Both the position numbers and the translations under genes were made by a program. A stretch of DNA of 64,000 bases, from positions 3,424,001-3,488,000 of the forward strand of contig OZ220741.1 in assembly GCA_965116885.1 (NCBI GenBank), read 5' to 3'. The notes beneath the pieces are model-generated. The model had not been told where the DNA came from, searched no databases, and saw only the letters and a list, made by a program, of their open reading frames with translations. The stretch's first letter is position 1; each line of letters begins with the position of its first letter. The stretch comes from Candidatus Latescibacterota bacterium (GTDB lineage Bacteria; Latescibacterota; UBA2968). Below are positions 4,632 to 62,134 of this stretch, piece by piece.

Positions 4632-4634
4632 CGC

Positions 4635-5354
4635 TTATGACGCCTCCCTCTTGAGAATCACTGTCCGACGCGTACTTACCACGAGAAATAATCTTCCATT
4701 CGCATCTACATAATAACAGGTGGGAATAACGGATTCTCCATAGTGGCAATACACATCTGCAGTCACAGCACTTTGATCTGTTGTGATCTCCGATGTCCCG
4801 CGATAAATTAGAAACTGGTTTTCCCGGATCATCGAGAACTCTTCTATCAGGTCAAATGTGTGCTTTGCAGTGTCCTTTCTGGCACTTAGTCGCTGGACTG
4901 CATCAAAAAGACACCAGTCGGCGGTATAGGGCCCAAGCGTTTTTGAGCGCACAGGCTCTTTGCCATCCATCAAAAGTCGGCTATTTTGGATTTCCCCTTT
5001 CTGGGTGTATCCAACCAGTCCTTTTCCCGCCAGGCTCCCGTTGGAATACTTCAGCGTCCAGGTCTTTGGAGATGTGAGTGCGTTGTTCTCGCATTGTGCA
5101 TTAATTTTTGTCGTGTTATCGAACTTAAGGTCCGAGCAGGTGATTCCCAAATGACGGTCTTCACCTTCATTCCTGGCGGAAATCCTGAGTGTAGCTTCAG
5201 GTTCGTGAGACCTGCTCCCTCGCTTCGTCCGTATATTCATCCAGTAGATGTCGTATGTCTGCTCTCCCGGTGTCTCCGGATCAAAGGTTTCGGCAGGCAA
5301 ACCGTATTTGTTCAATACCCTCTTTGTGTGGATATACTCCCATGGCTCAGCCAT
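4635..5354 (-). CDS. Hypothetical protein
   Basis: 239-aa ORF with RBS AAAGGAG, ending 3 bp before the sulfatase start. Confidence 0.7.
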   Translation of the reverse strand: MAEPWEYIHTKRVLNKYGLPAETFDPETPGEQTYDIYWMNIRTKRGSRSHEPEATLRISARNEGEDRHLGITCSDLKFDNTTKINAQCENNALTSPKTWTLKYSNGSLAGKGLVGYTQKGEIQNSRLLMDGKEPVRSKTLGPYTADWCLFDAVQRLSARKDTAKHTFDLIEEFSMIRENQFLIYRGTSEITTDQSAVTADVYCHYGESVIPTCYYVDANGRLFLVVSTRRTVILKREAS

Positions 5355-5554
5355 TACCGTGCTCCTTTCTAAGAAAGGCTTTCAATGAACGACATGCAGA
5401 TTCTACGACATACTGAAGGGAAGAGCAAGCATCATCTGGTAGGGATTTCGAAAGAGGGTTGGAAAACGCTCTATGCCCTACTTTGGCTGGGCTTGACCTG
5501 CAAAGGCTAAGTTGCTATTGTATCGGGACGCGAATTGTACTGCAGGAGCGACTG

Positions 5555-6877: not shown

Positions 6878-8179
6878 TCATCCCTGACCGTCATCACGGC
6901 CATACGCGCGTTCCCACGCCTTCACCTGTTCGAACAATACGCCCACGCGTTCTTGATATCTTTCATCCTCGATCCGATTATAAAACTCCTTCGGATCCTC
7001 CGATAGATCAAAATACTCTCCTGCTTCACTCTGATATACATTCAACTTTTCCGTCTCCGTCCGAATCATCTGGGTATCACCAATCTGACTGAATACCGCA
7101 TCCCGCCAATCATCAGGAGTCGGCTCTCCATCCAGCAATGGTTTCAGCGACCGTCCGTGTGCAGAGTCGGGAACCTCAGCCCCAATCAAATCACAAATCG
7201 TCGGAAACAAATCAATATGTTCTACCAGTTCATCCCGCACCCCTGATTGACTTCTTGGATCAGAAATCAACAATGGCACATGCACCGAAGCCTCTCGCAT
7301 ATTGAACTTCAAAAACATCTCGTGTTCCCACATCTGATCGCCGTGATCTGCCGTCCAGATCACAATTGTCTCGTCTCTAATTCCCAACCTATCCAACGTA
7401 TCTAAAACCATCCCACAATATCCATCCACAAGCTCTATCATCCCATAATATCCCGCAATCACCTGCCGCAGTTCCACGGGTGTCAGATGCGCCCACTCTT
7501 TCCTTTTTCTCAAAATATCGTTGTGAGGCAAGGGCGCGTCAGCAGGTGCTTGCTCTGGTAATTCGATCTTTGACTGATCGATCTTTTCATAAATCTCTTT
7601 GGGCGGATAAAATGGGGGATGAGGCTCCGTAAAACTCGTCCAGGATAGAAATTTCTCCCCTTTACTGACGGCTTCTTCAATCTGTCGAATCGACTCTGTC
7701 GCCACATGATATCCCCAATACTGATCCCGACTTCTCGGGCTTGGCCCGCCAGATGACCGCCGCAATACGCCCTCATTTTCCCAATCGTATCGGGCGAGCA
7801 TATTCTCAGGCATTGTCTCGCGCCACATCTGTTGTGTAATTTCTGGCTCATAGCCATTATCCATATCGGGATCTTTCCAGTGCATATGTCCCAGATGAAA
7901 CCGGCGATAATTCAGGGGTTGCACGGCGTGAGCAATCGTGTACATACCCGGATAAGGCATTGAGTTATTGGTAAAAACGCCATGTGCATGGACATATTTG
8001 CCGGTTGCCAAACTGTGCCGCGCTGGCGAACACACTGGCGACTGTGTATAACACTGGTCAAATCGCACACTCTTTTCAGCCAGACGATCCAGATTGGGCG
8101 TATGAGCCAGTGGATTCCCCAGGCACCCCAACGCATCAAATCTGTGATGATCACTCATCAAAACAAGCACATTCATCAA
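6878..8179 (-). CDS. Sulfatase, choline-sulfatase-like
   Basis: NVLVLMSDHHR, CSPAR, PHPP, ADHG. Confidence 0.9.
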   Translation of the reverse strand: MMNVLVLMSDHHRFDALGCLGNPLAHTPNLDRLAEKSVRFDQCYTQSPVCSPARHSLATGKYVHAHGVFTNNSMPYPGMYTIAHAVQPLNYRRFHLGHMHWKDPDMDNGYEPEITQQMWRETMPENMLARYDWENEGVLRRSSGGPSPRSRDQYWGYHVATESIRQIEEAVSKGEKFLSWTSFTEPHPPFYPPKEIYEKIDQSKIELPEQAPADAPLPHNDILRKRKEWAHLTPVELRQVIAGYYGMIELVDGYCGMVLDTLDRLGIRDETIVIWTADHGDQMWEHEMFLKFNMREASVHVPLLISDPRSQSGVRDELVEHIDLFPTICDLIGAEVPDSAHGRSLKPLLDGEPTPDDWRDAVFSQIGDTQMIRTETEKLNVYQSEAGEYFDLSEDPKEFYNRIEDERYQERVGVLFEQVKAWERAYGRDDGQG

Positions 8180-8194
8180 TCAATCTCCTTTCAA

Positions 8195-9442
8195 TCAATT
8201 CCTCGTTCGGTTTCTCCATTGGTTAAGCGCGTTGAGCATGCTGTCTCTGGTTTCGCGGTTCAGACTCTGAGCCAGGTTGTCGAGTTCATACGGATCGTCC
8301 GCCAGATCAAAGCAATGCGTAATGTCATTCTCGTTTCGCTTTGTAATTAGCTTTACATCGCCCCTGATAATGCAATCATCTCTGTGTTCGATGAAGACAT
8401 CGGTTGAGATATCTGGCTCTCCGGTCATGCAGGGGAGTAGAGAGCCACCTTCAGTTTCTCCTGAATTTTCAGCATCGGCCAGATGGAGAATCGTGGCGAA
8501 TAGATCTACTGTGGATACAGGACTTTCAATAACGCGTTGTGCTGTTCCAGGTACGCGGATGAGCAGGGGCACGCGAACGGACTCATCGAACATAACGCCT
8601 TTTCCGAACAAGCCATGACAACCGGCCATATCGCCATGGTCCGATGTGAAGATGACTACAGTATCATCTGCCAGTCCGGTCTTTTCCAGTGTTTTCAATA
8701 CGCGGCCAAATGCGGTGTCCAACTGAGAGATTTCCCCAAAGTACCGCTTCCTGAATTCTTCAACACCGTAGTCCGCATTCCAGCCTCTGTTCTTGAACCA
8801 GGCGTCGCGGTCCGTGCTGGGGGGACCATCCAGTACGGACTTATCATATCGCTGCATGTCGGTCAGGGGAGGCGAACACGGGGGATGGGGCGCTTGATAC
8901 GACACGGCCATGAAGAATGGGGATTCCGGGGATGATAGAGATTCCAGTTCTTCGCAGACAATATCTGTCAAGCCATCGGTTTCGTGTCCACGAAGTTTTA
9001 TGGCGTTGTCGGGATCATCGTACCAGATCAGTCCGGCATCGTGATCTACATGGTGGCTTTCCCATCCAATGAAGTGTTGAAAGCCTCCGCGCAGTTCTGG
9101 CGGGACCCACCCGTTCTGTTGTTTACCGCTCAAATGCCATTTCCCGATATAGTGCGTGTCATAACCCGCCTGGTTCAGGTGATGGGCAATGGTCAGTTGA
9201 TTCACGGGGAGGCGCATACCATTCCCTGTAACGCCGGTCTGGCTCGGGTATTGACCGGTGAGCAGGCAAGCCCTGTATGGGGTGCATAGCGGTACATTCG
9301 TATAAGCGCGATTGAATTGTACGTTTTGTGCGGCGAATTGTGATAGGTTGGGGGCGTGAACGAGATGATTCCCATAGAACGGCAACCATCTGGCACTAAG
9401 CTGGTCGGGAAAAATGAACAGGATGTTTGGTCTGTGTATCAT
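8195..9442 (-). CDS. Sulfatase (Cys-type)
   Basis: PNILFIFPDQ, CTPYR, GKWH, SDHG. Confidence 0.92.
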   Translation of the reverse strand: MIHRPNILFIFPDQLSARWLPFYGNHLVHAPNLSQFAAQNVQFNRAYTNVPLCTPYRACLLTGQYPSQTGVTGNGMRLPVNQLTIAHHLNQAGYDTHYIGKWHLSGKQQNGWVPPELRGGFQHFIGWESHHVDHDAGLIWYDDPDNAIKLRGHETDGLTDIVCEELESLSSPESPFFMAVSYQAPHPPCSPPLTDMQRYDKSVLDGPPSTDRDAWFKNRGWNADYGVEEFRKRYFGEISQLDTAFGRVLKTLEKTGLADDTVVIFTSDHGDMAGCHGLFGKGVMFDESVRVPLLIRVPGTAQRVIESPVSTVDLFATILHLADAENSGETEGGSLLPCMTGEPDISTDVFIEHRDDCIIRGDVKLITKRNENDITHCFDLADDPYELDNLAQSLNRETRDSMLNALNQWRNRTRN

Positions 9443-9479: not shown

Positions 9480-11936
9480 TCAGTTGTTTTTGAAAGGGTC
9501 GCTCAAAACAACGAGGGTGATAAGATCGCGCAGGCCCTTATTTGTTTCCTGTACATCTTGCACTATTGTATCAATCGCTGGTCGATCAGTAATTCCCAAC
9601 TCGCGACCAATTGCGTAGGTCAGCAATTTTTCTGTCAGACAACGCGTGAATTCTGCGTGGCGCTTTGCCACTATCTTGCGAAATTCGACGAAGGATTGAA
9701 AGGTCTCGCCGCTCGGCAATTGTCCCGAAGGATCAATCGCTGCGCTTCTGGTATAGTGGGTTCGCCAACCGCCGATCGCATCAAAGTTTTCCAGCGCGAA
9801 ACCAGGGGGATCGATTTTGTTATGGCATTGGGCGCAGGTCGGCATCTCGCGGTGCTTGACCAGTTGATCTCTGATGGTCGTTGCGCCGCGCGTGTCTGGC
9901 TCAATCTCGGGCACATCGTCCGGCGGTGGCGGTGGTGTGTATCCCAGCAGATTTTCCAGCACGTAAATCCCGCGCACCACAGGCGACGTATCTACGCCAT
10001 TGGCCGAAGCCATGAGAAAACTGCCCTGGCCCAACAGACCACCGCGTGGTGTCCCTGTGAGCGGAACCCGGCGAAAATGATCGCCCTCAATATCTTCTAT
10101 TCCATAATGTCGGGCGAGTTCCCGATTGAGAAAGGAATAATCGGCAGAAAGAAATTCGCGGGGCGAGAGATTGTTGTCGAGTACGTGCCGAAAAAACGTC
10201 TCTGTTTCGGTCGCCATAGCAGGGCCGAGATTGTCGCGAAAATAGACTCTAAAATCGGGGGAGGGTGGCATCTCACCAATGTTGTCATAGTGGAGCCATA
10301 CGCGAATGAAATTTTTAACAAAGCGGTGCGACTTTGTATCTTGGAGCATGCGATGGATCTGCTTACTGAGCGTGGCCGGGGCGCTTAGTTTTTTCTGTTG
10401 AGCAAGTGATAGCAGTTCATCATCTGGCACAGAAGACCACAAAAAATAGGATAGCCGGGCAGCCAGAGAATAATCATCCAGAGCGCCTTCGCCTTCATGC
10501 AAAAACAGAAAAGCAGGCGAACTGAGAATGGCCTGAAAACCCAGTTGTAATGCGGTCAACGGCGCCATGCCATTGCGGAGTTTTTCATGTGCAAGCGATT
10601 CAAATGGTGCCAGTTCTCCGGGCCGCAAGGGCCTGCGAAAAGCGGCTGTGGCAAATGCACGCAAACGCTCAGAAATGCGCTTTTGATCCAGGTCCTCGGG
10701 TTTTAGGTCGCCATACATCAACTGATGTCCGCGTGGAGGCCAGTCTTTTTCTTGAGGTCCGCTAACCTGAATTTCCCAAACCCTCAGCTTGGGCCCGCGG
10801 TAAATTTTGAGCAGCGCGTGATTTCTTTTATTTCCCGCTTTCTGATCCACAAAGGGCAGGATTTCGGGTTTTGGATCTTTTGCCTTAGTAAGTTTGCGAA
10901 CCAGGGCTTTGGTTGCCAGCGTTCCATTGCGAAACCGAACCTCGGGCTCAAATCCTTTTTCCAGATAAACATCCCATTCAAACCACTGAGGCTCTTCACG
11001 GGTCAGTTCAACAGTTGCAAGCGTGTATTCACGAGTAATATTGCCCGTGCTCACTACACTGCCTTTGCGATCTACAGCCGCTAACTCCAGCACAAGCGGG
11101 TCGCCTGTGGGAAAATCGTTGAGTTCTCTGTCATAATGGTGATTGCGATCAATTGCTGCCGCCTGTACCCTTATGGTGTAGGTACCACTGACAGGGGCAC
11201 CACCATCCACCAGCGGATAAAAGCCAATATGACCACCCCGGTAGTGACGTCCAGTCAGATCATCGTATCCCGTATCTGACACAAACCGAAAGCGGTCCTC
11301 TCTAAAGACCTTGGGCAAGGAACTGGCCTGTTTGCCTTTAAAATAGAAAGGGGATTTCTGTACGTAAGTTTTGGCTTCGGGTCTGGCTTCAAAATGCGTG
11401 GCGCGTGTGATGGCTTCTTCTGCAACGCGCAAATAGTGATCGAGCAACATGCCCGACGTGACAAGCCCGGCAGCATTGTTATCAAAGCCCTTGATTTTCA
11501 CTTCGGGTGGAAAGTCCTCCGTTGGATCCCAGGCTTCCATATTCAGACCGAGTAAATCGCCGAGTGTTTGGCGGTATTCCCAGGCGTTGAGCCGTCTCAG
11601 GGGTGTGTGCTGTCCTTTGCCCGACAATCGCATACGCGCTTCAGCAATTGATGCTGTAATCACCTGAACAGTAGCGAGCGCCTCATCTTTACCCGGCTGC
11701 ATCTGGCGCTTTGGTGGCATCGACTGCAGGTTGAGCTGATCGACAATATCCTGCCAGAGTTCTAATTCTTTGAAGTTGGCTATTGTCTCGGAGAACTGAT
11801 CAAAGCGCCGGTCGGCTTTTTGTACGCTTGGACCGTGACATTTTACACAATATTGTGTGAGAAATGCCCTGGGTAGTTCTGCCCAGACAGAATGCGCGCA
11901 TAGCGTGAAGACAATGACCATCAAAATCCGTTTCAT
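9480..11936 (-). CDS. DUF1592/PSD-domain protein with N-terminal cytochrome c-like domain
   Basis: Signal peptide, CVKCH and CAQCH, LRRLN, RLSYFLWSS, TSPVVRG, GFALENFDAIG; ATG 11936 overlaps the upstream stop (ATGA). Confidence 0.88.
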   Translation of the reverse strand: MKRILMVIVFTLCAHSVWAELPRAFLTQYCVKCHGPSVQKADRRFDQFSETIANFKELELWQDIVDQLNLQSMPPKRQMQPGKDEALATVQVITASIAEARMRLSGKGQHTPLRRLNAWEYRQTLGDLLGLNMEAWDPTEDFPPEVKIKGFDNNAAGLVTSGMLLDHYLRVAEEAITRATHFEARPEAKTYVQKSPFYFKGKQASSLPKVFREDRFRFVSDTGYDDLTGRHYRGGHIGFYPLVDGGAPVSGTYTIRVQAAAIDRNHHYDRELNDFPTGDPLVLELAAVDRKGSVVSTGNITREYTLATVELTREEPQWFEWDVYLEKGFEPEVRFRNGTLATKALVRKLTKAKDPKPEILPFVDQKAGNKRNHALLKIYRGPKLRVWEIQVSGPQEKDWPPRGHQLMYGDLKPEDLDQKRISERLRAFATAAFRRPLRPGELAPFESLAHEKLRNGMAPLTALQLGFQAILSSPAFLFLHEGEGALDDYSLAARLSYFLWSSVPDDELLSLAQQKKLSAPATLSKQIHRMLQDTKSHRFVKNFIRVWLHYDNIGEMPPSPDFRVYFRDNLGPAMATETETFFRHVLDNNLSPREFLSADYSFLNRELARHYGIEDIEGDHFRRVPLTGTPRGGLLGQGSFLMASANGVDTSPVVRGIYVLENLLGYTPPPPPDDVPEIEPDTRGATTIRDQLVKHREMPTCAQCHNKIDPPGFALENFDAIGGWRTHYTRSAAIDPSGQLPSGETFQSFVEFRKIVAKRHAEFTRCLTEKLLTYAIGRELGITDRPAIDTIVQDVQETNKGLRDLITLVVLSDPFKNN

Positions 11937-13186
11937 GCTATCTCCATCGCAGAAAAGGTCCCTGTGCTTTTGCCAAAGTTCTCTCGCTCTACACCAAACC
12001 ACTGCAAGACGGAAAGCCAGAGGTTTGACAGTGGAATCCGCTTGTGTGCCTCAGCAGGACACACGAGATGCCCCTGATGTTTCAAACCGCCCCCAGCGAG
12101 AATCACAGGCAAATTCCTATTGGAATGCCTTGAGCCATCGCCCATGCCACTTCCCAGAACGACCAGCGTGTCGTCAAACACATTTGCTTCTTTGAGGCGA
12201 TCCAGAAACCGACCAAACTGAGTCAACAAGTATTTTTCCACAATCTGCAGGTCTTTCAATCGCCCCTCGTCCTTGCCGTGATGCGAAAGGCCGTGATATC
12301 CTCCGAGGTTGAGTTCGGATGTCTTAAAGCCCATGGGGATTTCAAAGGTCACAACCCGTGTCGAGTCTGTCTGTAATGCCAGTGTTAGCAGGTCATAAAA
12401 AAGCGGCATTTCCTCAATTTGCATCCTTTCGAGGTCTTCCACAGGTTCAATTGGGGATTCTGGCTTGGGTTTGTCGAGCCATTCGCGCGACATTTGCAGG
12501 CGACGCTCGACGTCGCGTACCGAAGTCAGATATTGATCGAGCTTTCCGCGATCTGACGCATTTAACTGACCATCGAGTGTCTTTGCCGACGCGAGTAAGG
12601 CGTCGAGCACACTGCCCCGATTTGATAACGTGCGACGCTCTGCGCTTCGCATAGCTTCATCATTTTGCACAAATAAAGCCTGAAAAATGCGGGCGGGATT
12701 GTTAATCGGTGCCACGTTTACGCCCGACCGCGTCCAGACCATGTCTGTACCTCTGCCCAGCCCTGCAGTAATTGAGGGAAAGCGCGTTGTGCTGCCCACA
12801 TGCTCAGCCGCGACCTGATCCAGCGTCATATTCTTTTCGGGGAAGCCTGCGGCTTCTTCCTTGCGTATGCTGCTCAGAAAAACATGTACGCCGGAGTGCC
12901 CACCGCCCGTACCGTGATCGAGATTTGAAAAGATAGTAAAATCATTTCGATGTGAATCGATATACTTCAGCGTCAGGCTCGTCTCATAGTCCTTGCCGGA
13001 CTGCTCGGGAAAAAGTCCGCCCGGCCAAAATCCCAGATGATTGCCCACGAAGACCAGACGCCTCGGATTTGCCGCTCCGTACACCATGCTGCTTTCTAAG
13101 AAAGGCAAAGATAGTGCTACGCCTGCACCCTTTAAGAAGTGTCGGCGATTAACCTGCGCTTGCAAAAGTTCAGAAATGACGTTCAT
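11933..13186 (-). CDS. DUF1552 (HXXSHH) family protein
   Basis: Tat-like RRHFLK, YHGLSHH, LDQYLTSVRDVERR, NLPVILAGG. Confidence 0.9.
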   Translation of the reverse strand: MNVISELLQAQVNRRHFLKGAGVALSLPFLESSMVYGAANPRRLVFVGNHLGFWPGGLFPEQSGKDYETSLTLKYIDSHRNDFTIFSNLDHGTGGGHSGVHVFLSSIRKEEAAGFPEKNMTLDQVAAEHVGSTTRFPSITAGLGRGTDMVWTRSGVNVAPINNPARIFQALFVQNDEAMRSAERRTLSNRGSVLDALLASAKTLDGQLNASDRGKLDQYLTSVRDVERRLQMSREWLDKPKPESPIEPVEDLERMQIEEMPLFYDLLTLALQTDSTRVVTFEIPMGFKTSELNLGGYHGLSHHGKDEGRLKDLQIVEKYLLTQFGRFLDRLKEANVFDDTLVVLGSGMGDGSRHSNRNLPVILAGGGLKHQGHLVCPAEAHKRIPLSNLWLSVLQWFGVERENFGKSTGTFSAMEIA

Positions 13187-24148: not shown

Positions 24149-24189
24149 GGTGTCTCACTCTGTCTGCTTTTGTTAGCCGAATGCGGGTT

Positions 24190-24996
24190 CTAATCAGCCG
24201 GTTTCGTGGCTATGAAAACCATGTCCTTATGCTCAGCGTTCAGGGGCTCGTCCGAGAAGTTACCCTTCACCTCCACGTCGGCAAATCCCGCCAACTGTAG
24301 CATCCAGAGTACCTCATTGCGATGATACCAGCGCGTCTGACCCACATGCACCTCTTCCTCGGTAATCTGATTACCGTCATGAATCTCGTATCGGCGTTCC
24401 TGCATCTGGATCTGTTCAACTGGATCCTCTCCCGTGTCTCGTATATATACCAACAATCGTCGGCCATCTGGAAGCACCTTGTTTGATCGCTATGTCCATT
24501 CTCCCGGATAGGTCTTCGCTTCTTCTTTGCTGCCGTAGTAGTTCCGGTTTCCCGGAGAACAGGCGAATACGAGTTGTCCTTTCGGTTTTAGGTGGGTGAA
24601 ACAACGTCGCAATGTCTCCAATGCCTCGGCGCGATCCATGACACACTCGAAGCTCCCGCAGGGGATGTAAATGGTCCTGTACCTATGCGGCACGTCGAAC
24701 GCCTGCATAGATTGCCCATAAAGGACTGGTTTGACTCCGACGCGCTCTGCATCCCGGCGGCACACTGTTAGTTGATCTGCTGATATGTCTATTCCCTCAA
24801 CGTCAAGGCCCTCCTGCAAATAGGCGATCAACAAGCGACCCGCACCACACCCCAATTCGAGTGCTTTGTCCGAATTTTTCACGATTATGGAACGATAAAA
24901 TTCCTGATCTCTACGGGGGTCGGTAACCGATATTGTGGCCCAATGGACGGACGCCAGGCCGGTGTATAGATCGCGTTCGTCGTATCGCTGTTGCAT
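24190..24996 (-). pseudogene. Methyltransferase with premature amber stop (paralog of 34930-35733)
   Basis: Near-identical to 34930-35733; TAG at 24490-24492 where the paralog has TTG; frame continues to 24190. Confidence 0.88.
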
Positions 24997-28074: not shown

Positions 28075-29802
28075 ATGACCCAAGCAAGCAAATGGCGGAT
28101 AGAATTAGCTCGAAAAATCACCCCTATCTATGCTAATAACCCAAAAGTAAAAGCCGTCATAGTCGGCGGCTCTGTCAGTTATGGGGTGGCAGATCGGTAT
28201 TCCGATGTCGAAATTGGTGTCTTCTGGTCTGAACCACCGTCAGAAGATGAGCGGAAAGCCGCTGCTAACCTGATCGGCGTATATCGTGTTATTAAGCCGT
28301 TTTCTGAAAATGCTGAAGATCCTGATGCAGGGGCTAATGAAGACATTTACATTGCCGGTAACCGAGAAACAGGCTTCCAGGTCGATATCAAGCACAGATT
28401 AGCAGATGCAATAGAAAAAAATCTGAACAATCCTGAGAGTGATGCAGGCCACGTCATCCAAAATGCCATCCCATTATATGGGCATGCCCTGATTAAGCAA
28501 TGGAAAGCTGGTATTGTCCCTTACCCGAAGGAATTGAAAAAAAAGGAAATAGAAAATCGCTTTGGGAAATTAGGACCTTGGTGGCTGTGGGAAAAACTGG
28601 TTCAGGAAGATGAGAGAGTACTCATTTGCTTGAAATTCAACGGCATCTTGGAAGATATTACTGTGACGCTAAGATGGCTTAATAACGCTCACGACATTAA
28701 CTACATCAAATGGCCAGAACGCGCCATCCAAGAATTCCAGATTGTGCCCCGTGATTACTGGGCTCGATACCAGCTTATCTGTCGAGAATCTCCAAAAATT
28801 GGGATTCAGCAGCTTCGTTTACTCGTTGAGGAAACGCTTGATCTTGTGGAAACATACCTGCCGGAGATAGAAGTGGCAAGCATCAAAGAAAAAACTTTCA
28901 ACCAAAGACCCAAATGGGTTATAAGATCGGCAGTCAAAAAAAGTGAATTAAGCCTCTGGCAACATGATCTGCTAAACACTCTGACCCGAACTTACACCTC
29001 TATTCACAAAGTAAAGGCTATATTGTTAAGTGGAGCCATCTCTCAAAAGACTGAGGAGGACATCGAAATCACCATCTTCTGGTCCGAATCACCGTCGGAT
29101 GAGGATCGAAAGATCGCCAGTGGAGGAAGGCTCCAAAACCTTCATCCGTATGATGCAGAAAAGCAAATGAGGGAAGACAAATATAGGTTCAAGGGCGTCA
29201 ACATTCTCATCAGACACTACACGCTTGAAAGCGTGCAAAACATACTTATCAGTGTGATTGATCAATATGACCCTGCCCACTTTAAACAGACCGTAATTGC
29301 AACCCTCCAGCATGGCATACCATTGTATGGCGACGCAATTATACAAAAATGGCAAAACAAAGCGAGAGCCTATTCCAGAGAACTCGCACAAAATCGAGTG
29401 CGTCTGATCCTTTCAGAAATACCTTGGCAATGGTGCAACCGTATAGAAATTTATGCCCATCGCCAAGCTTTACCATTTTTCTCCTACCTATTATACTATC
29501 ACGCAATACATATGCTTCGTATATTGACGGCTTTGAATCGGATCTATATTCCTGGCGACTTGAACCGAATGAACCCATTCATAGAAAAATTTCAAATTGC
29601 CCCACCTGATTTCTCTGCTCGCTTAAAATCTATGTTCTTTTCGGAACCGATAACAGGTGTCAAACAACTCAATGGTCTGATAGAACACCTGTTTACCTGT
29701 ATCGAGTCCTATATGCCAGAAGTGGATACCACAGAAGCCCGAAATGGATACAAAAAAGAGCGACGAAAAGCTTGGGATCATCCCCCAGAAGGGGTATTGT
29801 AA
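28075..29802 (+). CDS. Protein with two nucleotidyltransferase-like repeats (DUF4037-associated type)
   Basis: VKAVIVGGSVSYGVADRYSDVEIGVFWSEPPS and a degenerate repeat VKAILLSGAISQKTEEDIEITIFWSESPS; IPLYG occurs twice. Confidence 0.65.
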   Translation: MTQASKWRIELARKITPIYANNPKVKAVIVGGSVSYGVADRYSDVEIGVFWSEPPSEDERKAAANLIGVYRVIKPFSENAEDPDAGANEDIYIAGNRETGFQVDIKHRLADAIEKNLNNPESDAGHVIQNAIPLYGHALIKQWKAGIVPYPKELKKKEIENRFGKLGPWWLWEKLVQEDERVLICLKFNGILEDITVTLRWLNNAHDINYIKWPERAIQEFQIVPRDYWARYQLICRESPKIGIQQLRLLVEETLDLVETYLPEIEVASIKEKTFNQRPKWVIRSAVKKSELSLWQHDLLNTLTRTYTSIHKVKAILLSGAISQKTEEDIEITIFWSESPSDEDRKIASGGRLQNLHPYDAEKQMREDKYRFKGVNILIRHYTLESVQNILISVIDQYDPAHFKQTVIATLQHGIPLYGDAIIQKWQNKARAYSRELAQNRVRLILSEIPWQWCNRIEIYAHRQALPFFSYLLYYHAIHMLRILTALNRIYIPGDLNRMNPFIEKFQIAPPDFSARLKSMFFSEPITGVKQLNGLIEHLFTCIESYMPEVDTTEARNGYKKERRKAWDHPPEGVL

Positions 29803-34878: not shown

Positions 34879-35771
34879 TTATGTGTCGTGCGATCCTCTA
34901 TCCGTCGCCGAATGTGCCAATTGCGGGTTCTAATCAGCCGGTTTCGTGGCTATGAAAACCATGTCCGTATGCTCAGCGTTCAGAGGCGCGTCCGAGAAGT
35001 TCCCCTTCACCTCCACGTCGGCGAATCCTGCCAGCCGTAGCATCCAAAGCACCTCATTGCGGTGATACCAACGCGTCTGCCCCACATGCACCTCTTCCTT
35101 GATAATCTGATTACCGTCATGAATCTCGTATCGGCGTTCCTGCATCTGGATCTGTTCAACTGCATCCTCTCCCGTGTCTCGTATATATACCAACAATCGT
35201 CGGCCGTCTGGGAGTTCTTTGTTTGATCGCAATGTCCATTCTCCTGGGTAGGTCTTCGCTTCTTCGCTGCCGTAGTAGTTCCGGTTTCCCGGAGAACAGG
35301 CGAATACGAGTTGTCCTTTCGGTTTCAGGTGGGTGAAACAACGTCGCAATGTCTCCAATGCCTCGGCGCGATCCATGACACACTCGAAGCTCCCACAGGG
35401 GATGTAAATGGTACTGTAGCTATGCGGCACATCGAATGTCTGCATAGATTGCTCATAGAGGACCGGTTTGACTCCGACACGCTCTGCATCCCGGCGGCAC
35501 ACTGTTAGTTGATCTGCTGATATATCTACGCCCTCAACATCAAGTCCATCCTGCAGATAGGCGATCAACAAGCGACCTGCGCCACACCCTAATTCGAGTG
35601 CTTTTCCTGAGTTCTTCACGATTATGGAACGATAGAATTCCTGGTCTCTACGGGGGTCGGTGACCGATATTGTGGCCCAATGGACAGACGCCAGGCCAGT
35701 GTACAGATCGCGTTCGTCGTATCGCTGTTGCATTGCGTTGTCCTTGAAAAAGTGGTCGGTCTGGTCCTTAT
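34879..35771. repeat. Second copy of block 23314-25034 with the GNAT deleted
   Basis: 34879-34925 matches 23314-23360 (46/47) and joins via TGCG to the match of 24182-25034. Confidence 0.9.
34930..35733 (-). CDS. Class I SAM-dependent methyltransferase (intact copy)
   Basis: ALELGCGAGR, GVDIS, PCGSF. Confidence 0.9.
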   Translation of the reverse strand: MQQRYDERDLYTGLASVHWATISVTDPRRDQEFYRSIIVKNSGKALELGCGAGRLLIAYLQDGLDVEGVDISADQLTVCRRDAERVGVKPVLYEQSMQTFDVPHSYSTIYIPCGSFECVMDRAEALETLRRCFTHLKPKGQLVFACSPGNRNYYGSEEAKTYPGEWTLRSNKELPDGRRLLVYIRDTGEDAVEQIQMQERRYEIHDGNQIIKEEVHVGQTRWYHRNEVLWMLRLAGFADVEVKGNFSDAPLNAEHTDMVFIATKPAD

Positions 35772-37792: not shown

Positions 37793-37897
37793 TGGCAGAG
37801 GGTGTGGGGATCGAACCCATATACGGGATATCCCACAGGATACCCGTAGCCCTCGGTTTGGAAGCCTCGGGGCCAGCACCACTGGCTCTCACCCCCT
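37793..37897 (-). tRNA. Non-canonical tRNA-like RNA (8/4 allo-tRNA/tRNA-Sec-like), 8-nt anticodon loop CUUCCAAA
   Basis: Acceptor AGGGGGTG/CACCCTCT + G + CCA; D arm GCCAG-TGGTG-CTGGC; long V arm TACGGGTATCC-TGTG-GGATATCCCGTA; T arm TGGG-TTCGATC-CCCA; TATTAT 5 nt upstream. Confidence 0.8.
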
Positions 37898-38016
37898 GCT
37901 CAATAATACGACGATGTCACAAAATGGAATGTTTCGGGTGGGATAGGGGAGACTACATCTTATTCGTCTCGAAGCGCTTGCGTCTAACGATGGGTGTGGT
38001 TGATGTGGCAGGGCTT

Positions 38017-40620: not shown

Positions 40621-42069
40621 TTAAGTGCCTTTGTAGATATTGGAGGAATACATTTCAAAGCCTTCGGGGCCAGGGTAGCCGTCGAAGAGATTGCATTCGG
40701 GTACATTGCCGGAGGCGCCATTTTTGAGCCAGTTGATGAAGATGGGGTCGGCATTGCGGTGTTCGAGTTCGGCGAGACCCGAGGCGTGAAGGTCTTGAAC
40801 GCGACTGGGATTTTCAGAAGCGATATTGTCCAGAGAGCCGTAGGGCGTGAGGATGCTGTCTTCGGGGTTGGGATGCCATTCGAGATAGCCTTCCTGATCG
40901 AAGACGGTAAAGTAGCCGCGTTGAAGATGTCGCATCGCTTTGCCGCGCGCCACGCCTGATAGGGCGATTTCGCGGTTGCCCAGGCTGTTTTCACGCGCAG
41001 CTTTGAGGATGTCGTAACTTTCGATATTGTCGGGAACAGGCGCGCCTGATAGGTTGGCGATGGTGGCGAAGAAATCTTGTGGTTGAAAGATGGCAGAACT
41101 GCGACCTGTGTCGCCTTCGGGTGTTTTGATGAAAAGTGGGATGTGGATTTCTTGTTCGCGAACGGGTGCGCCTTTGCCAAATCTGCCGCGTTCACCGACG
41201 TTGGTGCCGTGATCGCCTGCGACGAGTATGGCGGTGTTTTTGGATAGACCCGTGGCTTCAAAGGCTTCGAGGAAGCGGCCAAAGCAGTGGTCCATCCAGG
41301 TGACTTTGGCTGCATAACTGGCTTTGATGCGTGCTCTGGCTTCGTCGGGCAGGTTGGGATTGCTGCGGGCTTGTGTTCCGCCCTTGAATATGCGAGGATC
41401 GAGGCGCCCATCATAACCAGGCGTTTTGTCGTATTTGAGCATGAATTCGGGGGGTACGTCCCAGGGTTCGTGGGGGTCGAAGCAGTCGATCCAGAGGAAG
41501 AAATTTTCCCGGTTTTTATTGTCGCGAAGAAACTCGGCGGCGGTGTTGAAGAGTTTGGCGCAGTTCCAGTCGTCTAAGTTTTCGCGGCCTCTGTTGGTGC
41601 GGGCATATTGAATGGTTGGTATTGGGAGTTCGTCTTCGAGGATGTCAAAGAGCGGGTCTTTTGCCCAGTTGCTGGGCCATTTGGCTTCGTCATTTATCCA
41701 GGCGCGGTCAATTTCGGCACCGCGGATGAAGGTCCAGGTGTGAAAGGGATAATCGAAGGCATGGCCCCCGTTGACGAGGTGGGGGGTGTCGTGCAGGAGT
41801 TGCGTTGCGTAGCCTGCTTCGCCGAGGACATACGGCAGTGCATTGGTGTTGAAGGGCAGGGGTTTCCAGGCGTGAAAGGGACTGCCGTATTTGCCGGTCA
41901 TGACGTCGGTGCGATAGGGGATGGTGGGAAAGCTCGCTGCGAAAGCACGGTCGAAACACCAGGATTGTGAGGATAGGCGGTCGAGGTTGGGTGTTTCGAT
42001 CCAGTCATTGCCGTTGGCACCGATATAGTCGTAGCGCATGGTGTCGATGATTAAGAGAATGATGTTCAT
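40621..42069 (-). CDS. Sulfatase-like hydrolase with Thr in the nucleophile motif
   Basis: MNIILLIIDTMRYD, TIPYR, FDPHEPW, GDHG; start placed at ATG 42069. Confidence 0.85.
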   Translation of the reverse strand: MNIILLIIDTMRYDYIGANGNDWIETPNLDRLSSQSWCFDRAFAASFPTIPYRTDVMTGKYGSPFHAWKPLPFNTNALPYVLGEAGYATQLLHDTPHLVNGGHAFDYPFHTWTFIRGAEIDRAWINDEAKWPSNWAKDPLFDILEDELPIPTIQYARTNRGRENLDDWNCAKLFNTAAEFLRDNKNRENFFLWIDCFDPHEPWDVPPEFMLKYDKTPGYDGRLDPRIFKGGTQARSNPNLPDEARARIKASYAAKVTWMDHCFGRFLEAFEATGLSKNTAILVAGDHGTNVGERGRFGKGAPVREQEIHIPLFIKTPEGDTGRSSAIFQPQDFFATIANLSGAPVPDNIESYDILKAARENSLGNREIALSGVARGKAMRHLQRGYFTVFDQEGYLEWHPNPEDSILTPYGSLDNIASENPSRVQDLHASGLAELEHRNADPIFINWLKNGASGNVPECNLFDGYPGPEGFEMYSSNIYKGT

Positions 42070-42252
42070 TGTAAATCTCCGAAGACGGATGGACGAATTA
42101 AAACTCTTGAGGCCGAAATAAGCTATAGACCCATTTGTTCCGACACAATAGAAATACATACCGGTTGGGCTGCCATTTCTTCATTGCTTTCTCTCGCGGA
42201 TTTGTTCATATAAACAAGCCGTTGTTATCTTTTTGAAACAGGAGGTTATCGG

Positions 42253-45960: not shown

Positions 45961-46739
45961 TCATCTTTTTTTGTCTTCGATACTAACAACAGACGGGATC
46001 ATCCGAGCAGTTGTTCCAAGAACGAGGGTCAGTAATCCCCCTGTTAGGAACCACGGCTGCGGGCCAAATACATCGGTTACAGGACCTATCACGATGAGCC
46101 CAAGCATAGTTGTAAATTGCACGGAACTATGGAGAGCACCAAATACGCGGCCTTGTAGATGGGGAGCGACATTGGCCTGAAGGAGTGCGCGGAGAGGCGC
46201 GTTAATTAGCGAGCTACCGACACCGCTTAAAGCTATGCCCGTGATGGCTAAAGCAAAGCGGGTATGAGGGGTGATACCTACGAGTATTGTTCCAATGCCA
46301 TACACAATCCAGCCGAAGATCGTCGTCATGATTCGGCGACGGAATCCACCCCAGGCCCCGACCAGAAGACCTCCCAGGACAATGCCCACTCCCCAGGCAG
46401 AATTAAACCAACCAAGTTCGGTAGCACCTCCATTGAAGTGATCTGTTATCAAGAGGGGCGAGATGGTCATCTTCGTGTTCCCAAATATGTTTAATACGGC
46501 AGCAATTAAGATTAAGTTCCGAAGACCAATCCATCTCCACTGATGGGAGCCAAAAAGACTTCTGGTAGGTAGGCGACAAGGACTGAGGTCGCGAGAATGG
46601 TCGCAGATCCCGTCTTTTCCGTAAGCCACCACACCAGGGCAAATTGTGCAACTTGGGTTCCAAGAGACGACAGCGTTTGTCCTGTCCAGATGGTAAAGAA
46701 TCCACCAGCCCATGAACCGTCTCTATTCAGATGAATCAA
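45961..46739 (-). pseudogene. MFS transporter (MefA-like) with internal deletion and frameshift
   Basis: N-part FFTIWTGQTLSSLGTQVAQFALVWW...APISG and C-part WRWIGLRNL...LQGRVFG lie in different frames; total about 260 codons, middle helices missing. Confidence 0.8.
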
Positions 46740-46742: not shown

Positions 46743-47324
46743 TTACTCCTTTTGACCTGAATCGGCGAGAAAGAACGTTCCCCTCTTTTTAAACCGAAAA
46801 CTCTCATCGGGTACGATAAACTCCAGTTTATCACACAAAAAAGAGCCAGATGGAACTGAATTTTGGAGCTGTGCACAAAGCTCAAGGCTCTCGTCTATGG
46901 ATATGAACTCTGCAATGGTCATGTGCGGAGCTATGTTGCGCCTGTGATACGCTTCGCCGGAAAATGCCGATGTACCGTGGAGGATCTGCTTTAAATTATC
47001 GATAGGCTCTCGTGGCCTTATAGGATACGAGACGCCAGGGTGCTTGGTTGAGGCATGCGGCTTGTCGTAATGAAGCGTGAATGGCTGAACATCAGTAAGG
47101 ACGTTGTTGATTTCATCAATAAGATCAGGCGTCATTTCCCGACCCAAGGGATCCGACAAAGAGATGTGCGTCGAACAGGAGTCAGCAGAGCGGGGATCAT
47201 ATTTTGCTCGCAAGAGATCGATCTCCTGAGATACCTCTGGAGGGGGCATGATAAGGATGAGGCCAAATCGGTAGTCGCGTTGCCAATCTTCCCACTTCGA
47301 TGTGTTTTTTACGTATGAAATCAT
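46743..47324 (-). CDS. 2H phosphoesterase (2'-5' RNA ligase family)
   Basis: HISL and PHMTIAEF motifs. Confidence 0.85.
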   Translation of the reverse strand: MISYVKNTSKWEDWQRDYRFGLILIMPPPEVSQEIDLLRAKYDPRSADSCSTHISLSDPLGREMTPDLIDEINNVLTDVQPFTLHYDKPHASTKHPGVSYPIRPREPIDNLKQILHGTSAFSGEAYHRRNIAPHMTIAEFISIDESLELCAQLQNSVPSGSFLCDKLEFIVPDESFRFKKRGTFFLADSGQKE

Positions 47325-57834: not shown

Positions 57835-59037
57835 TCAGGCTTTTGATGTTTGTTGGGCTTTACACGCTTGTTTCCAGACATGGTGTTCTGCCATCATCTT
57901 TTCAACTTTTTCAGGGGCGGTCGTACGCAGGTCGCGTTGTTCGTCGGGATCGGTGCTCAGATCGAACAGGCCATCTGGTTTGCCGTCTGTGGCGTGGAGT
58001 TTTAGATTGCCCTCACGGACCGCGTCCTCTGTTCTATACGTCCAGTGCAAGGTGCGATCCAGGGGTTGCTCTTTGCCTTCGAAGAGTGACCACACGTTTT
58101 GGGCGTCAATGATGCGGTCGTTGGGTACAGTTGCACCGGCGAGAGCAGCGAATGTGGCGTAGAGATCGTAGTGTACCCAGGGGGTATGGATTTTTGTATT
58201 TGGAGCGATTTTTCCCGGCCAGACCGCGTTGCAGATGACCCTTAGTGAACGTTCCCAGAGAGTTCGGCCATAACCATTGGTCCGGCTGCCTCCCTGGTCG
58301 CTCAGGAATACGATGAGCGTGTTTTCCGCAATACCGGCATGGAGTACTGCATCCAGCACGCGCCCCACGCACAGGTCCAGGTATTCGACCATATACTGGT
58401 AGTTTACCATTGGGTCATCGCTGTGATAGTATCCGGGTGGGGCCTGATAGGGGCCGTGTGGGGCATAAAAGGCGAGATTCAGGTAGAAGGGCTTGGCCTT
58501 TTGGGATTGGCGGTTGATAAATTTGATGGCTTCATCCGTAAACAGGGTGTCGAAGTAACCCTCGTCCGCTATGGGTTCCAGGCCGCGAAAAAAGTGGCTT
58601 TTCATGTCGCGGTTGTACAGGTGGGTGTAGTAGTCGGCATGGCCTGCGTTGCTGCCGTAAAATTGATGAAAGCCGTGGTGTAACGGATTAAATTTTGCGG
58701 CATATCCCAGGTTCCATTTTCCAAACAGCCCTGTTGTGTATCCGGCATTTCGCAAAAGTCTGGCTATAGAGACTTCCCGGAGTGAGAGTCCGGATTCCGG
58801 ATCGTCTGGGCGTGTCTGTGAGTTGATGCCAACCCGATACGGATGCCTGCCCGTGTTCCAGGCACAACGCGCGGGTGAACACAGCGGGGTTGCGATCAGG
58901 CAGTTGTCGAATACAACGCCCTCGCTCGCCATTGTGTTCAGTCTGGGAGTTTCGAATATCCCTTCGCCATAATAATCAACTGCTTCGCAACCGAGGTTGT
59001 CGGCGACCATGAAGATGATATTGGGCTTGTTTTTCAT
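57835..59037 (-). CDS. Sulfatase (Cys-type)
   Basis: PNIIFMVADNLG, CSPAR, GKWNLG, SDQG. Confidence 0.9.
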   Translation of the reverse strand: MKNKPNIIFMVADNLGCEAVDYYGEGIFETPRLNTMASEGVVFDNCLIATPLCSPARCAWNTGRHPYRVGINSQTRPDDPESGLSLREVSIARLLRNAGYTTGLFGKWNLGYAAKFNPLHHGFHQFYGSNAGHADYYTHLYNRDMKSHFFRGLEPIADEGYFDTLFTDEAIKFINRQSQKAKPFYLNLAFYAPHGPYQAPPGYYHSDDPMVNYQYMVEYLDLCVGRVLDAVLHAGIAENTLIVFLSDQGGSRTNGYGRTLWERSLRVICNAVWPGKIAPNTKIHTPWVHYDLYATFAALAGATVPNDRIIDAQNVWSLFEGKEQPLDRTLHWTYRTEDAVREGNLKLHATDGKPDGLFDLSTDPDEQRDLRTTAPEKVEKMMAEHHVWKQACKAQQTSKA

Positions 59038-59097
59038 TGGTATTTCCTTAATTGCTTGAAAAATATAAATTTATGGTTATGGAGATCAGAGACAATA

Positions 59098-60519
59098 TCA
59101 GTTCTGGGGCTCGGGATGGCTCGCATTGGCCAGTTCGCGCAGTACATCGACCGCGAGGAGGACATCTTTCCTTCTACAGTCGAACTGACCGACCTGGAAG
59201 CGAATGACGAACTGTCCTTCATGGATCGTCTGCGTCAGGTAGATTCGGCCGTCATCATTGACCGCGCGGAGCAGGCGTTCGGTGGCGTCGTTGGCATTCT
59301 CACTGTTGGGGGCGTACTGGAACGTGAAGAGCGAAAGGTGGCAGTCCGTTGTCAGGCGAAAGCCGTCCAGAGATGCGATCGCGGCAGCGGCCTCTTCAGC
59401 CCAGGCAATATGGTTTCGGATGCGCTGTCGGAGGTCTTTGAGGCCGTGGGCGCGGAGCAGGAACCAGAGCTTTAAGGCTCGGAATCGACGTCCCAGGGGG
59501 ATCGTCCACTCGCTGTAATTGGTGATCTCGGTTTGACCGAGGGTCTGGAGGTAATCCGGACGGATGCCGAGGGTGCGAACCTGTGGTTCCGGGTCCGCGA
59601 GAAACTGGATTGAGCAGTCGAACTGCGCACCGAGCCACTTGTGGGGGTTGAAGGCGATGCTGTCGGCTTCCTCGACACCCGCCCACAACTCCCGTAGCTC
59701 GGGACAGATCATCGCGGAACCGGCCCACGCGGCGTCGATGTGGACGTAGAGATCATGCTCTCGTGCCACTTCGATGGTCTGGCGCACATGGTCGGACGCG
59801 CCAATTGATGTGCCTCCAACACAGAGGACGACACCGGCCGGGAGAAAACCCGCGGCGCGATCTGCGTTGATTGCCCGACGGAGTGCCTCCGGGTCGAGTG
59901 CCCAGGAACCATCGGTCGGAACTTTGACCAGATTTCGTTGGCCGATACCGGCGATGCGAATCGCCTTGTCAACCGACGAGTGGGTCTCCGGTGATGCGTA
60001 GATCCGGAGTTGTTTCTCTCCCGCTATTCCAGAGTCGATTCCTCGCCAGCCGAGTGTGCGCTCGCGCATCGTCAGTACGGCGCAGACATTTGCCGACGTT
60101 CCCGCATCCTGGATAACCCCCTGGAACCCTTCTGGTAGCCCGAGTGCCTGACGCATCCAGTCGGTCATTCGAGTTTCAATCTCCGTAGCTGCGGGTGAGG
60201 TCTGCCAGAGCATGCACTGGGCCGCCATGACCGCCGTCAGATTCTCGGCGATCATCGAAACCGGCGCAGCATTGGCGCTGAAGTACGCAAAAAAGCGCCG
60301 GTGTTGCCAGTGCGTCATGCCGTCCGGCACAATGCGCTCGAAGTCGGCAAAGATCGTTTCCATGCCTGCTGGCTCTTCCGGTGGCGATAGAGGCAGCATC
60401 GCAGCGATCTCGCCTGGTTCGGTCTGCGCTCGTACGGGCCGCTCTTCGAGCGTGGTCAGGTATTCGGCGCCCCACTGTGCTGCTCGTTCAGCCCATTGAT
60501 AGTAGTCTTCTCGTTTCAA
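59098..60519 (-). CDS. PLP-dependent aromatic-L-amino-acid decarboxylase family
   Basis: GMTHWQH, SPAATE, HIDAAWAG, FNPHKW, RRFRALKLW. Confidence 0.92.
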   Translation of the reverse strand: MKREDYYQWAERAAQWGAEYLTTLEERPVRAQTEPGEIAAMLPLSPPEEPAGMETIFADFERIVPDGMTHWQHRRFFAYFSANAAPVSMIAENLTAVMAAQCMLWQTSPAATEIETRMTDWMRQALGLPEGFQGVIQDAGTSANVCAVLTMRERTLGWRGIDSGIAGEKQLRIYASPETHSSVDKAIRIAGIGQRNLVKVPTDGSWALDPEALRRAINADRAAGFLPAGVVLCVGGTSIGASDHVRQTIEVAREHDLYVHIDAAWAGSAMICPELRELWAGVEEADSIAFNPHKWLGAQFDCSIQFLADPEPQVRTLGIRPDYLQTLGQTEITNYSEWTIPLGRRFRALKLWFLLRAHGLKDLRQRIRNHIAWAEEAAAAIASLDGFRLTTDCHLSLFTFQYAPNSENANDATERLLRAVNDDGRIYLTQTIHEGQFVIRFQVGQFDCRRKDVLLAVDVLRELANASHPEPQN

Positions 60520-60601
60520 TGCATTGCGTCCAGGTTTTTAGAAATTGAGTTCTTCAAAGGTAGTTGTGGCGTCAGCATTTTGTTGTCCTTCAATAAATCG
60601 C

Positions 60602-62134
60602 CTAAATTTCATCGTCATCCAGAGCGCGCTGTCCTTCAAACGGTCCCCAGCGAATACGCGCTCTGGTTCTTCTATCGCTCTTGTAAATCTCTGGATCATA
60701 ATCCGGGTTTACCTTCGGGAATCGCGCCTCGACCAGTTCGAGATAGCGCATCATCTCATCGTAGAGTTTCTGGTGTGTTTCCGGATTTTGCTTTGCAATA
60801 TTGGCAACCTCGCCAATGTCGCCAGAAAGGTCGAACAACATCGGGATATCTGGTCGTTCGTAAAAATGGATCACTTTGGATGAACCGGAAATAATGACCG
60901 AATGCGGTACAGAATTTCGATAATGGGGATAATGGAAATAGAGATAGCGATTTAGAAAGGCATCGTCCGGCTCTTTTCCCGCCATGTAATCCGCGAGGCT
61001 GACACCGTCGATGTTTTGCAATTCTGCCGAGTCGCCACCAGCCCAATCGACGAAGGTGGGTAAGAAGTCATAGTTGATCACGTTGCCGGTAAAAGCTGAA
61101 CCAGGTTTGATCCCGGGACCTTTGACTATCATAGGTACCCGGATGCCGCCATCCCACAACCACCACTTTGTCGCGTGTAACGGTTGCTTGTAGTCCGGTA
61201 TGATTTCGACTTCTTCGTGTCGGTAGCCGTTGTCACCCACTACGATGACATAGGTGTTATCCTCGATTCCCAGTTCCCTGAGCTTGTCGAGCACTGCGCC
61301 GATCCGACCATCCAGGTCCTCACCCATTCCCAACCAGATTGCGGGATCATCTCCCCGGTTGACTGTGTCGGGATGTTTGTTGTTTTTCTTGTACCACTCC
61401 TGCACCAGTGGGTGATTCACATACTTTTCACGCGTTTTATCCAGGCATTCATAACCCGCATGCATGGCATAATGAGATATCTGAAGGTAAAAGGGATTGC
61501 TTTTTTCTACCTGTTCTTCCATGAAGCCGATAGCCTTTTCAGTAATGCTGAACATCAACTTGGGATCGGCCATATCTTTGGGCAGGCGCCTGGGCGTCCG
61601 CTCGCCTCTCTCCAGGTCGTACTTCAGGGTATTGCCGGGATTATTATCGGTAGCACCATCGTGTAATACGTAGCCCGCCTTTGCAGGATCGCCCCTCATG
61701 TGCCATTTGCCAATGTGGGCGCTGACATAACCCAGTGGCTTGAGAGCTTTGGGAATGGTAACTGCGTCTTCGTCGAGTTCTCGGTCGGACACGTTCGGAA
61801 CCAGCGGAAAATGCCGATATTCCCTTTTCGTGTCGTAGTAAGGCTCTCTTGCCCCCAAATATACCGTGAAACCACTGTGTGGCGCAGACTGTCCCGTCTG
61901 CACACACACACGAGCAGGTGCACATTGCGGTGCTCCATAGGCATTGCCAAATTTCATTCCGTCATTTGCCAGTTTTTGGATGTTCGGCATTTGCAAGACC
62001 GGCATGAGGGAATTCTCCATGGTGTCATCCATGGCAACCGGTGATCCGTTCCAGGCCCAGTCGTCTATATAAAACATGACAATGTTGGGCCTCGCTTGTT
62101 GCTCCTTCAAACAATTTTTCTTTGGCATTATCAC
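60602..62134 (-). CDS. Sulfatase (Cys-type)
   Basis: [28 protein letters not shown]. Confidence 0.9.

Follow-up and report, generated by a model that had tools for sequence, protein, structure and literature searches.

Allo-tRNAs were found as sub-threshold matches to tRNA-Sec; their acceptor/T branches are of the 8/4 or 9/3 type, and they combine long variable arms with Sec-like D arms, longer anticodon stems and a G or a U at position 73 (Mukai et al., Nucleic Acids Res 2017, PMC5389517). Neither folding programs nor ARAGORN cope well with them, the hosts named are Clostridia, Proteobacteria and Acidobacteria, and the published table includes entries with A1, entries with G3:U70 and types listed under 'D-loop variation' (PMC5389517). 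In E. coli, allo-tRNAs of both kinds (8/4 and 9/3) undergo processing and charging and serve the ribosome; where they have G3:U70, alanine is inserted, and serine too when position 73 is a G (PMC5389517). Canonical tRNA-Sec follows an 8/5 rule, and minor 8/4 tRNA-Sec species are reported in the same paper (PMC5389517).

Anticodon loops of non-standard size are known as a few natural exceptions, in yeast mitochondria, sponge mitochondria and phage tRNAs; in the widened loop of a sponge mitochondrial tRNA-Gly, the four central bases match a UGGA +1 site (PMC5009743). The yeast mitochondrial tRNA-Thr(UAG) also has a widened loop and reads triplets (PMC3113583, PMC7609411), and tRNAs from all 20 isoacceptor classes can be made into quadruplet decoders (PMC9094753). 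In the literature searched, of which coverage is partial, we found no bacterial chromosomal tRNA described as having a conserved 8-nt loop. Finally, some tRNAs are non-proteinogenic, such as a set of S. aureus tRNA-Gly (PMC4574755) and the B. cereus tRNA-Other (PMC5389517).

We analysed a 64-kb window (the whole stretch of DNA considered, 64 000 nucleotides from a Candidatus Latescibacterota genome) that carries a tRNA-like gene (Table 1). The elements listed in the original prediction (acceptor, D, anticodon, variable and T arms, G73-CCA and a TATTAT hexamer) are all found where it had placed them, and its description of an 8/4, tRNA-Sec-like structure of the allo-tRNA type is supported by the Rfam match, by the comparison with allo-tRNAs and by the pairing among homologs. 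The acceptor stem (AGGGGGUG paired with CACCCUCU) has 8 bp, beginning with A1:U72 and with a lone G:U at 3:70, and is followed by a linker of 2–3 nt to the D arm. The 12-bp acceptor/T branch is split 8 + 4 with standard pairs throughout; a 7/5 register would require an A.C pair. The D stem has 5 bp plus an A.C tier and closes on a 5-nt loop (UGGUG), which Rfam aligns as six tiers with one inserted base. The anticodon stem exceeds 5 bp: in the arm CCCGAGG-CUUCCAAA-CCGAGGG it has seven tiers, two of them non-standard, G.A and A.G being the third and fourth tiers counted from the loop, and the isolated arm folds as (((..((........))..))) at −6.2 kcal/mol. The TATTAT hexamer (37908–37903) lies 5 nt ahead of A1; scans for a sigma-70 consensus promoter and for a terminator around the gene found none.

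Table 1. Features of the tRNA-like gene and its immediate neighbours (positions in the window).
Feature	Position	Strand	Description	Evidence or conservation
tRNA-like gene	37793..37897	minus	105 nt, 8/4 cloverleaf, encoded CCA	sequence, MFE fold, Rfam, five homologs
Acceptor 5' strand AGGGGGUG	37890..37897	minus	pairs with 37797–37804; includes A1:U72 and G3:U70	
D arm GCCAG-UGGUG-CUGGC	37872..37886	minus	GG in loop	two compensatory pair swaps in L007
Anticodon arm	37850..37871	minus	7-tier stem with tandem G.A/A.G, 8-nt loop	identical in 6/6 genomes
Anticodon loop CUUCCAAA	37857..37864	minus	8 nt; in Rfam, Sec loop consensus plus one inserted c	in 6/6 assemblies
Variable arm	37822..37848	minus	11 pairs, one bulged U, 4-nt loop UGUG	fold and homolog alignment
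T arm UGGG-UUCGAUC-CCCA	37805..37819	minus	4 bp	one loop change (C to U) in L007
Discriminator G73 and encoded CCA	37793..37796 (CCA 37795–37793)	minus		invariant in all copies
Upstream block with TATTAT (37903–37908)	37898..37944	minus	47 nt	smallest block common to six genomes
PhyH-like dioxygenase gene P0001	36938..37753	minus	40 nt downstream of the tRNA-like gene, same strand	
SAM methyltransferase gene P0004	38017..38778	minus	upstream of the tRNA-like gene	Pfam Methyltransf_25

The MFE fold computed with ViennaRNA is exactly the cloverleaf, with a z-score of only −1.5 and 17 of 200 shuffles folding equally well, so that thermodynamics alone is no evidence for a gene. ARAGORN reported no tRNA gene in the 64-kb window or in the five homolog loci described below, and Rfam none in the window at its gathering thresholds. 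Below threshold, the tRNA-Sec family (RF01852) matches the gene end to end with 34.6 bits against a cut-off of 47, the sole match in 64 kb, and the E-value of 0.0045 is that of the whole 64-kb window searched against 4227 families. For this alignment a base has to be inserted in the D loop and a c in the anticodon loop, the latter being exactly the Sec loop plus one C that the original prediction had read there. With a strict cloverleaf pattern there is a single match in the window and none in 100 shuffles. The gene scores 134.5 bits with our own covariance model (R1), which finds no second copy in the window, and fragments of the gene, including of its 3' part, are likewise absent from it.

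We may wonder at this stage whether the cloverleaf is an accident of an intergenic spacer and not an RNA gene at all. The modest z-score and the empty ARAGORN and threshold-level Rfam searches would fit such an accident, which is set against the Rfam E-value over the window and the conservation and covariation reported below; it is virtually untenable, and we judge it refuted already. The gene is beyond chance, by its Rfam E-value, the strict pattern, its invariance relative to the flanks and its compensatory changes. Finders built on a seven-base loop miss it: ARAGORN detects it in none of six genomes, and the Rfam tRNA-Sec match stays sub-threshold.

We sought homologs by scanning genome contigs once with a degenerate pattern. 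Its constraints were limited to the D loop, portions of the D stem and of the anticodon stem, the T loop, the 12-bp acceptor branch and K73-CCA; the anticodon was unconstrained, the loop could have 7 or 8 nt, and the G.A positions could hold any base. The scan returned 29 loci, five of which are true homologs (L007, L008, L016, L017 and L026), all from MAGs of Candidatus Latescibacterota, a phylum of the FCB group. Twenty of the off-target loci share one kind of pattern match, and the six of these checked with ARAGORN are all ordinary tRNA-Cys(GCA) genes; the remaining ones are a tRNA-Thr and three unrelated loci. It should also be noted that a Vineibacter terrae contig (L011, 5001–5076, minus strand) carries a 76-nt element with a tRNA-like acceptor, a T arm and CCA, and about 29 nt between them, which Rfam aligns weakly to both tmRNA ends (23.2 bits versus 47) and in which ARAGORN finds nothing. 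BLAST of the tRNA-like gene gave no match in E. coli genomes and only T-arm-sized matches, with 21–27% coverage, in plasmids and phages. The flanks of the homologs are 94–96% identical to those in the window, which is therefore from a close relative of those genomes.

Within this narrow clade, to which every homolog belongs, the 8-nt loop and the tandem G.A are kept in all five homologs, hence in six of six genomes with the window; the combination of a perfect stem with a 7-nt loop, which the original prediction had named as the mark of a decayed copy, is seen in none of the homologs found. The extra C is genuine and no sequencing error, since it is present in six of six independent assemblies. 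Three homologs (L008, L016 and L026) match the window at every one of the 105 nt, and the set of four intact close copies that they form with it has 0/105 variable columns in the gene and 16/130 in the flanks (Fisher p 8e-5).

The remaining intact homolog, L007, differs at eight positions: six of them make three compensatory pairs, two lie in loops, and no pair is broken. In its D stem, two adjacent pairs are swapped (A:U to G:C and G:C to A:U); its variable arm shows one compensatory change (G:C to A:U) and one loop change. In the alignment of homologs 86/86 pair cells are standard, against 22–54% in slid registers, which show no double change; the eight acceptor pairs of the intact copies are all standard and none of them varies. 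Five of the six copies have 100% standard pairs, L017 being the only broken one. The covariation rests on a single diverged homolog (L007), and the covariation tool had no more than three distinct rows to shuffle in its control, where the observed values were attained by 22 of 500 shuffles. Because such a control has little power, we simulated eight random substitutions (n = 300 000): 1.9% of the sets keep all pairs, and none does so with three double changes. L007 folds into the same cloverleaf with a z-score of −2.6. The tRNA-like gene is thus a real RNA gene that is selectively maintained, apart from L017, in which 13 nt comprising the entire 5' acceptor strand have been lost between short GAGC repeats; because of this deletion the locus is evidently dispensable in that genome.

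These data bear on the possibility that the gene is what is left of an opal-suppressor allo-tRNA or of selC, in decay since insertion of a C recently disabled it. A loop that differs from the Sec consensus by one added C, and a score below the Rfam threshold, would suit a relic, as would the genome with a 13-nt deletion and an insertion sequence (IS) next door and the presence of other broken genes in the island, such as a methyltransferase copy with an in-frame TAG. A relic is at odds, however, with the 0/105 variable gene columns against 16/130 in the flanks, with the three compensatory pairs and no broken one in L007, and with an insertion and a G.A tandem that are fixed in six of six genomes. 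Tested as a possible tRNA pseudogene, the gene shows neither broken stems nor drift at the rate of the flanks, except in the L017 copy, and we consider decay quite improbable.

Could the gene instead be the working selenocysteine tRNA of the clade, an 8/4 variant that reads UGA with one loop base bulged out? tRNA-Sec is its best Rfam family, and the two share the 8-bp acceptor, G73, the long variable arm and the loop CU-UC(c)A-AA; the minor 8/4 tRNA-Sec species mentioned above also lend this idea some plausibility. Unlike tRNA-Sec, however, the gene scores 34.6 bits in the window and 37 bits in L007 against the gathering cut-off of 47, and has a 12-bp (8/4) rather than a 13-bp (8/5) branch. 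Its anticodon loop is longer by a C and its D loop by one base, a 7-nt loop with UCA is lacking, and the acceptor stem has A1:U72 and G3:U70. Moreover, no selA, selB or selD is seen in the 64 kb or in the 10-kb loci, the window holds no convincing gene with an in-frame UGA, and the gene sits in an accessory island and is lost in one genome. A function as the tRNA-Sec of the clade is highly improbable. The one same-frame pair of open reading frames (at 42181–42183) that suggested read-through of an in-frame UGA was rejected, the upstream one being antisense to a real gene.

Concerning aminoacylation, the AlaRS mark G3:U70 is kept in all intact copies (columns 3 and 99 of the alignment are G:U). 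Position 73 is usually A in AlaRS substrates; here it is G. The original prediction proposed, among other possibilities, a serine-charged tRNA, and the marks on which it relied, a long variable arm and G73, are indeed present. It overlooked G3:U70 and is too narrow, because this pair gives alanine charging in published allo-tRNAs (PMC5389517).

Decoding was assessed over 114 kb, with codon counts from 51 window genes (18 956 codons). The original prediction had suggested, as one possibility, that a UCCA quadruplet reads UGGA; nothing in the 114 kb supports it. Of 423 in-frame UGG codons, 102 (24.1%) have A as the next base, compared with 24.7% for all codons, so that UGG-A is not depleted in these genes. 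In the same genes, GGA accounts for 25% of the glycine codons, and UGA is the stop codon of 27 of the 51. Junctions between open reading frames that a UGGA quadruplet could bridge number four in the window, where other 4-mers average 2.2 and reach 9 at most, and 0, 0, 0, 2 and 1 in the five homolog loci; none of the junctions inspected in the 114 kb reveals a convincing UGGA-dependent or frameshifted gene. Since nothing in these 114 kb depends on the tRNA or is adapted to it, any decoding by it must be weak, conditional or absent. Adding one U to the usual tRNA-Trp loop, or one A to the tRNA-Gly(UCC) loop, likewise gives CUUCCAAA, so that a triplet reading of UGG or GGA is as conceivable as that of UGGA. 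The tandem G.A in the anticodon stem may hinder ribosomal use. The specific proposal of a natural four-base UCCA/UGGA decoder or +1 suppressor, with an 8/4 body charged with alanine or serine, maintained by selection in a free-living bacterial lineage and used conditionally to recode or rescue genes, is improbable.

The best of the UGGA junctions (24495–24498) was discarded, as it reflects a TTG-to-TAG nonsense change in a duplicated methyltransferase gene and not a frameshift. The two copies of this gene (24176–24996 and 34916–35733, minus strand) share about 95% identity. At 24 kb, an in-frame TAG (24490–24492) stands in place of the TTG of the intact copy, and there is a 3-nt indel; this copy is probably a pseudogene.

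The absence of codon-usage adaptation and of a UGGA-dependent gene leads to the possibility that the RNA does not decode at all. It would keep a tRNA body, and perhaps aminoacylation, with an 8-nt loop and a G.A stem that bar decoding; it could be a decoy for, or a target of, a protein or nuclease that binds the anticodon arm, a regulator, or an alanine or serine donor for a non-ribosomal transferase. Non-proteinogenic tRNAs do exist (PMC4574755; B. cereus tRNA-Other), and the anticodon arm is unchanged in six of six genomes while the D and variable arms have changed, which fits sequence-specific recognition. This invariance is, however, weak evidence, because at 7.6% divergence a stretch of 22 nt has about an 18% chance of showing no change. 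In addition, no toxin–antitoxin pair, aminoacyl-tRNA-using transferase or aaRS paralog was found among the scanned open reading frames of the window and the loci, the neighbouring genes differ in every genome, and the window contains no complement of the anticodon arm, as an RNA target, beyond chance. A non-decoding RNA appears to us a doubtful reading, yet one to be taken seriously.

The original prediction described the gene as sitting alone among accessory genes, and correctly so: its neighbours are accessory and variable. It lies within a long run of same-strand accessory genes for SAM methyltransferases, GNAT acetyltransferases, an MFS exporter, ADOP/MacB-type permeases, NUDIX and glyoxalase-family proteins, sulfatases and BNR-repeat proteins. 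The downstream gene P0001 has no Pfam or NCBIfam match and no PDB relative by sequence, and 29 of its 30 nearest atlas clusters are PhyH (score 0.97); it is absent, truncated or IS-disrupted in L007, L016, L026 and L017. In the place of the upstream methyltransferase gene P0004, three homolog loci (L008, L016 and L026) have a BNR-repeat gene and L007 has an MFS gene. The order methyltransferase/tRNA/PhyH-like gene of the window thus reads BNR/tRNA/PhyH-like gene in L008, BNR/tRNA/truncated PhyH-like gene in L016, BNR/tRNA/GNAT in L026 and MFS/tRNA/LD-carboxypeptidase in L007. A conserved partner gene, of which none was found in the window and the five loci, was rejected because the neighbours differ in each genome. 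The tRNA-like gene and 47 nt upstream are retained while both neighbours change, and this smallest block common to all the genomes (the gene and about 47 nt) suggests that the gene has its own promoter, the upstream block being the presumed promoter region.

Several other features of the region were recorded. From 16000 to 52000 in the window and in the five homolog loci, the order and presence of the accessory genes are scrambled among the six genomes; the shared pieces are 94–96% identical, and the junctions resemble deletions between short direct repeats. In L017, an insertion of about 2.8 kb (1981–4746) with an IS1-family transposase open reading frame splits the PhyH-like gene, with about 10 bp of window sequence matched on both sides; this is the genome with the 13-nt deletion. 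A gene of the 2H-phosphoesterase/2'-5' RNA ligase family (46743–47324, minus strand) lies 9 kb from the tRNA-like gene, and a nucleotidyltransferase-domain protein is encoded 8 kb off its other side (28075–29802, plus strand). An MFS transporter open reading frame of 250 aa (45961–46713, minus strand) covers about half of the Pfam profile and is probably truncated. The stretches 3366–9442, 40621–42159, 57835–62134 and 9480–13186 hold many sulfatase genes, an α-L-fucosidase gene and paired Planctomycete-type DUF1552 and DUF1585-1595/cytochrome-domain proteins, which point to a sulfated-polysaccharide-degrading lifestyle. Neither two 271-aa proteins nor two GNAT proteins of about 300 aa proved to be paralogs among the neighbours.

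tRNA and selC genes serve as island insertion sites. One may thus ask whether this gene is chiefly an anchor for recombination or integration, the island being built and reshuffled at its borders and any RNA function being secondary. Homology to the window breaks within about 50–80 nt upstream of the gene in five of five comparisons, and within 5–70 nt downstream in several, and the surrounding same-strand accessory genes are reordered at 94–96% identity, all of which an anchor would account for. On the other hand, no integrase or recombinase was found among the open reading frames scanned in the window, nor any integrase in the five loci, the 3' part of the gene has no repeated copies, and the junction variants resemble deletions from one short direct repeat to the next. 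An anchor also leaves unexplained the compensatory changes across the whole cloverleaf, and we give it little credence. An integron cassette array was rejected as well, since the spacers have no common repeat and no paired RYYYAAC/GTTRRRY ends.

The reading that we favour, with a probability of roughly 0.4, is by analogy with allo-tRNAs: the gene would encode a weak suppressor-type adaptor chargeable with alanine or serine. The gene is carried, with its short upstream region, in the variable accessory island of closely related Latescibacterota. Transcription would start from the conserved block of 47 nt upstream, and the RNA would be processed to its encoded CCA end, then charged by AlaRS (through G3:U70) and/or by SerRS (through the long variable arm and G73), as allo-tRNAs bearing these marks are in E. 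coli. It might next reach the ribosome, since its 12-bp acceptor/T branch and T loop look compatible with EF-Tu, and there the widened loop would present UCCA. It would insert alanine or serine either at UGGA, shifting the frame by +1, or at an offset triplet (UGG or GGA). Its role would be an accessory recoding, outside the standard code, and its activity would be low or conditional, because host genes show no adaptation to such decoding. We hold to this suppressor-type adaptor with modest confidence, and place the non-decoding RNA close behind it, and decay, an island anchor or selC as less likely.

A chromosomal bacterial 8-base loop, fixed across species and accompanied by compensatory changes, is a natural object for the question of four-base or offset decoding, and a rare natural candidate for a non-triplet or off-ribosome function of a tRNA. 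With it one can ask whether four-base decoding occurs outside organelles and laboratory mutants, and what purpose allo-tRNAs serve. There is also a practical interest, because the gene bears dual alanine and serine marks on an orthogonal-looking scaffold and allo-tRNAs are already employed in genetic-code engineering.

How does the gene compare with the known systems? Like the widened-loop tRNAs, namely laboratory frameshift suppressors of the SufB2 type, the yeast mitochondrial tRNA-Thr(UAG) and the glass-sponge mitochondrial tRNA-Gly, it has one added base, and its central UCCA matches UGGA, the same quadruplet as at the sponge site (PMC5009743). These tRNAs are mutant, engineered or organellar and have 7/5 bodies, whereas the present one has an 8/4 body and a free-living bacterium as host. 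Like the S. aureus cell-wall tRNA-Gly and the B. cereus tRNA-Other, it is an extra gene outside the decoding set, which could be charged yet unused; those have known partner enzymes or synthetases, whereas no partner lies near this gene. Compared with allo-tRNAs, it differs by its loop of 8 nt instead of 7, every entry of the published table carrying a triplet anticodon, and by the tandem G.A in its anticodon stem, which distinguishes it from the allo-tRNA rows viewed; the string CTTCCAAA has no occurrence in the supplementary tables of that paper (PMC5389517). Its 5-nt D loop, its very long 11-pair variable arm, its Latescibacterota host and the lack of toxin–antitoxin genes alongside also set it apart. 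Yet it shares with the 8/4 allo-tRNAs the 8-bp acceptor and 4-bp T stem, the long variable arm, G73, the lengthened anticodon stem and the sub-threshold tRNA-Sec match missed by ARAGORN, its D arm may be akin to the tRNA-Sec-like type with a long stem and a tetraloop, and by eye its acceptor, D arm and T arm resemble a 'major' entry (row 8) of the table (PMC5389517). By these sequence features the gene is best classed with the 8/4 allo-tRNAs, from which it deviates at the loop, in a phylum new for the class.
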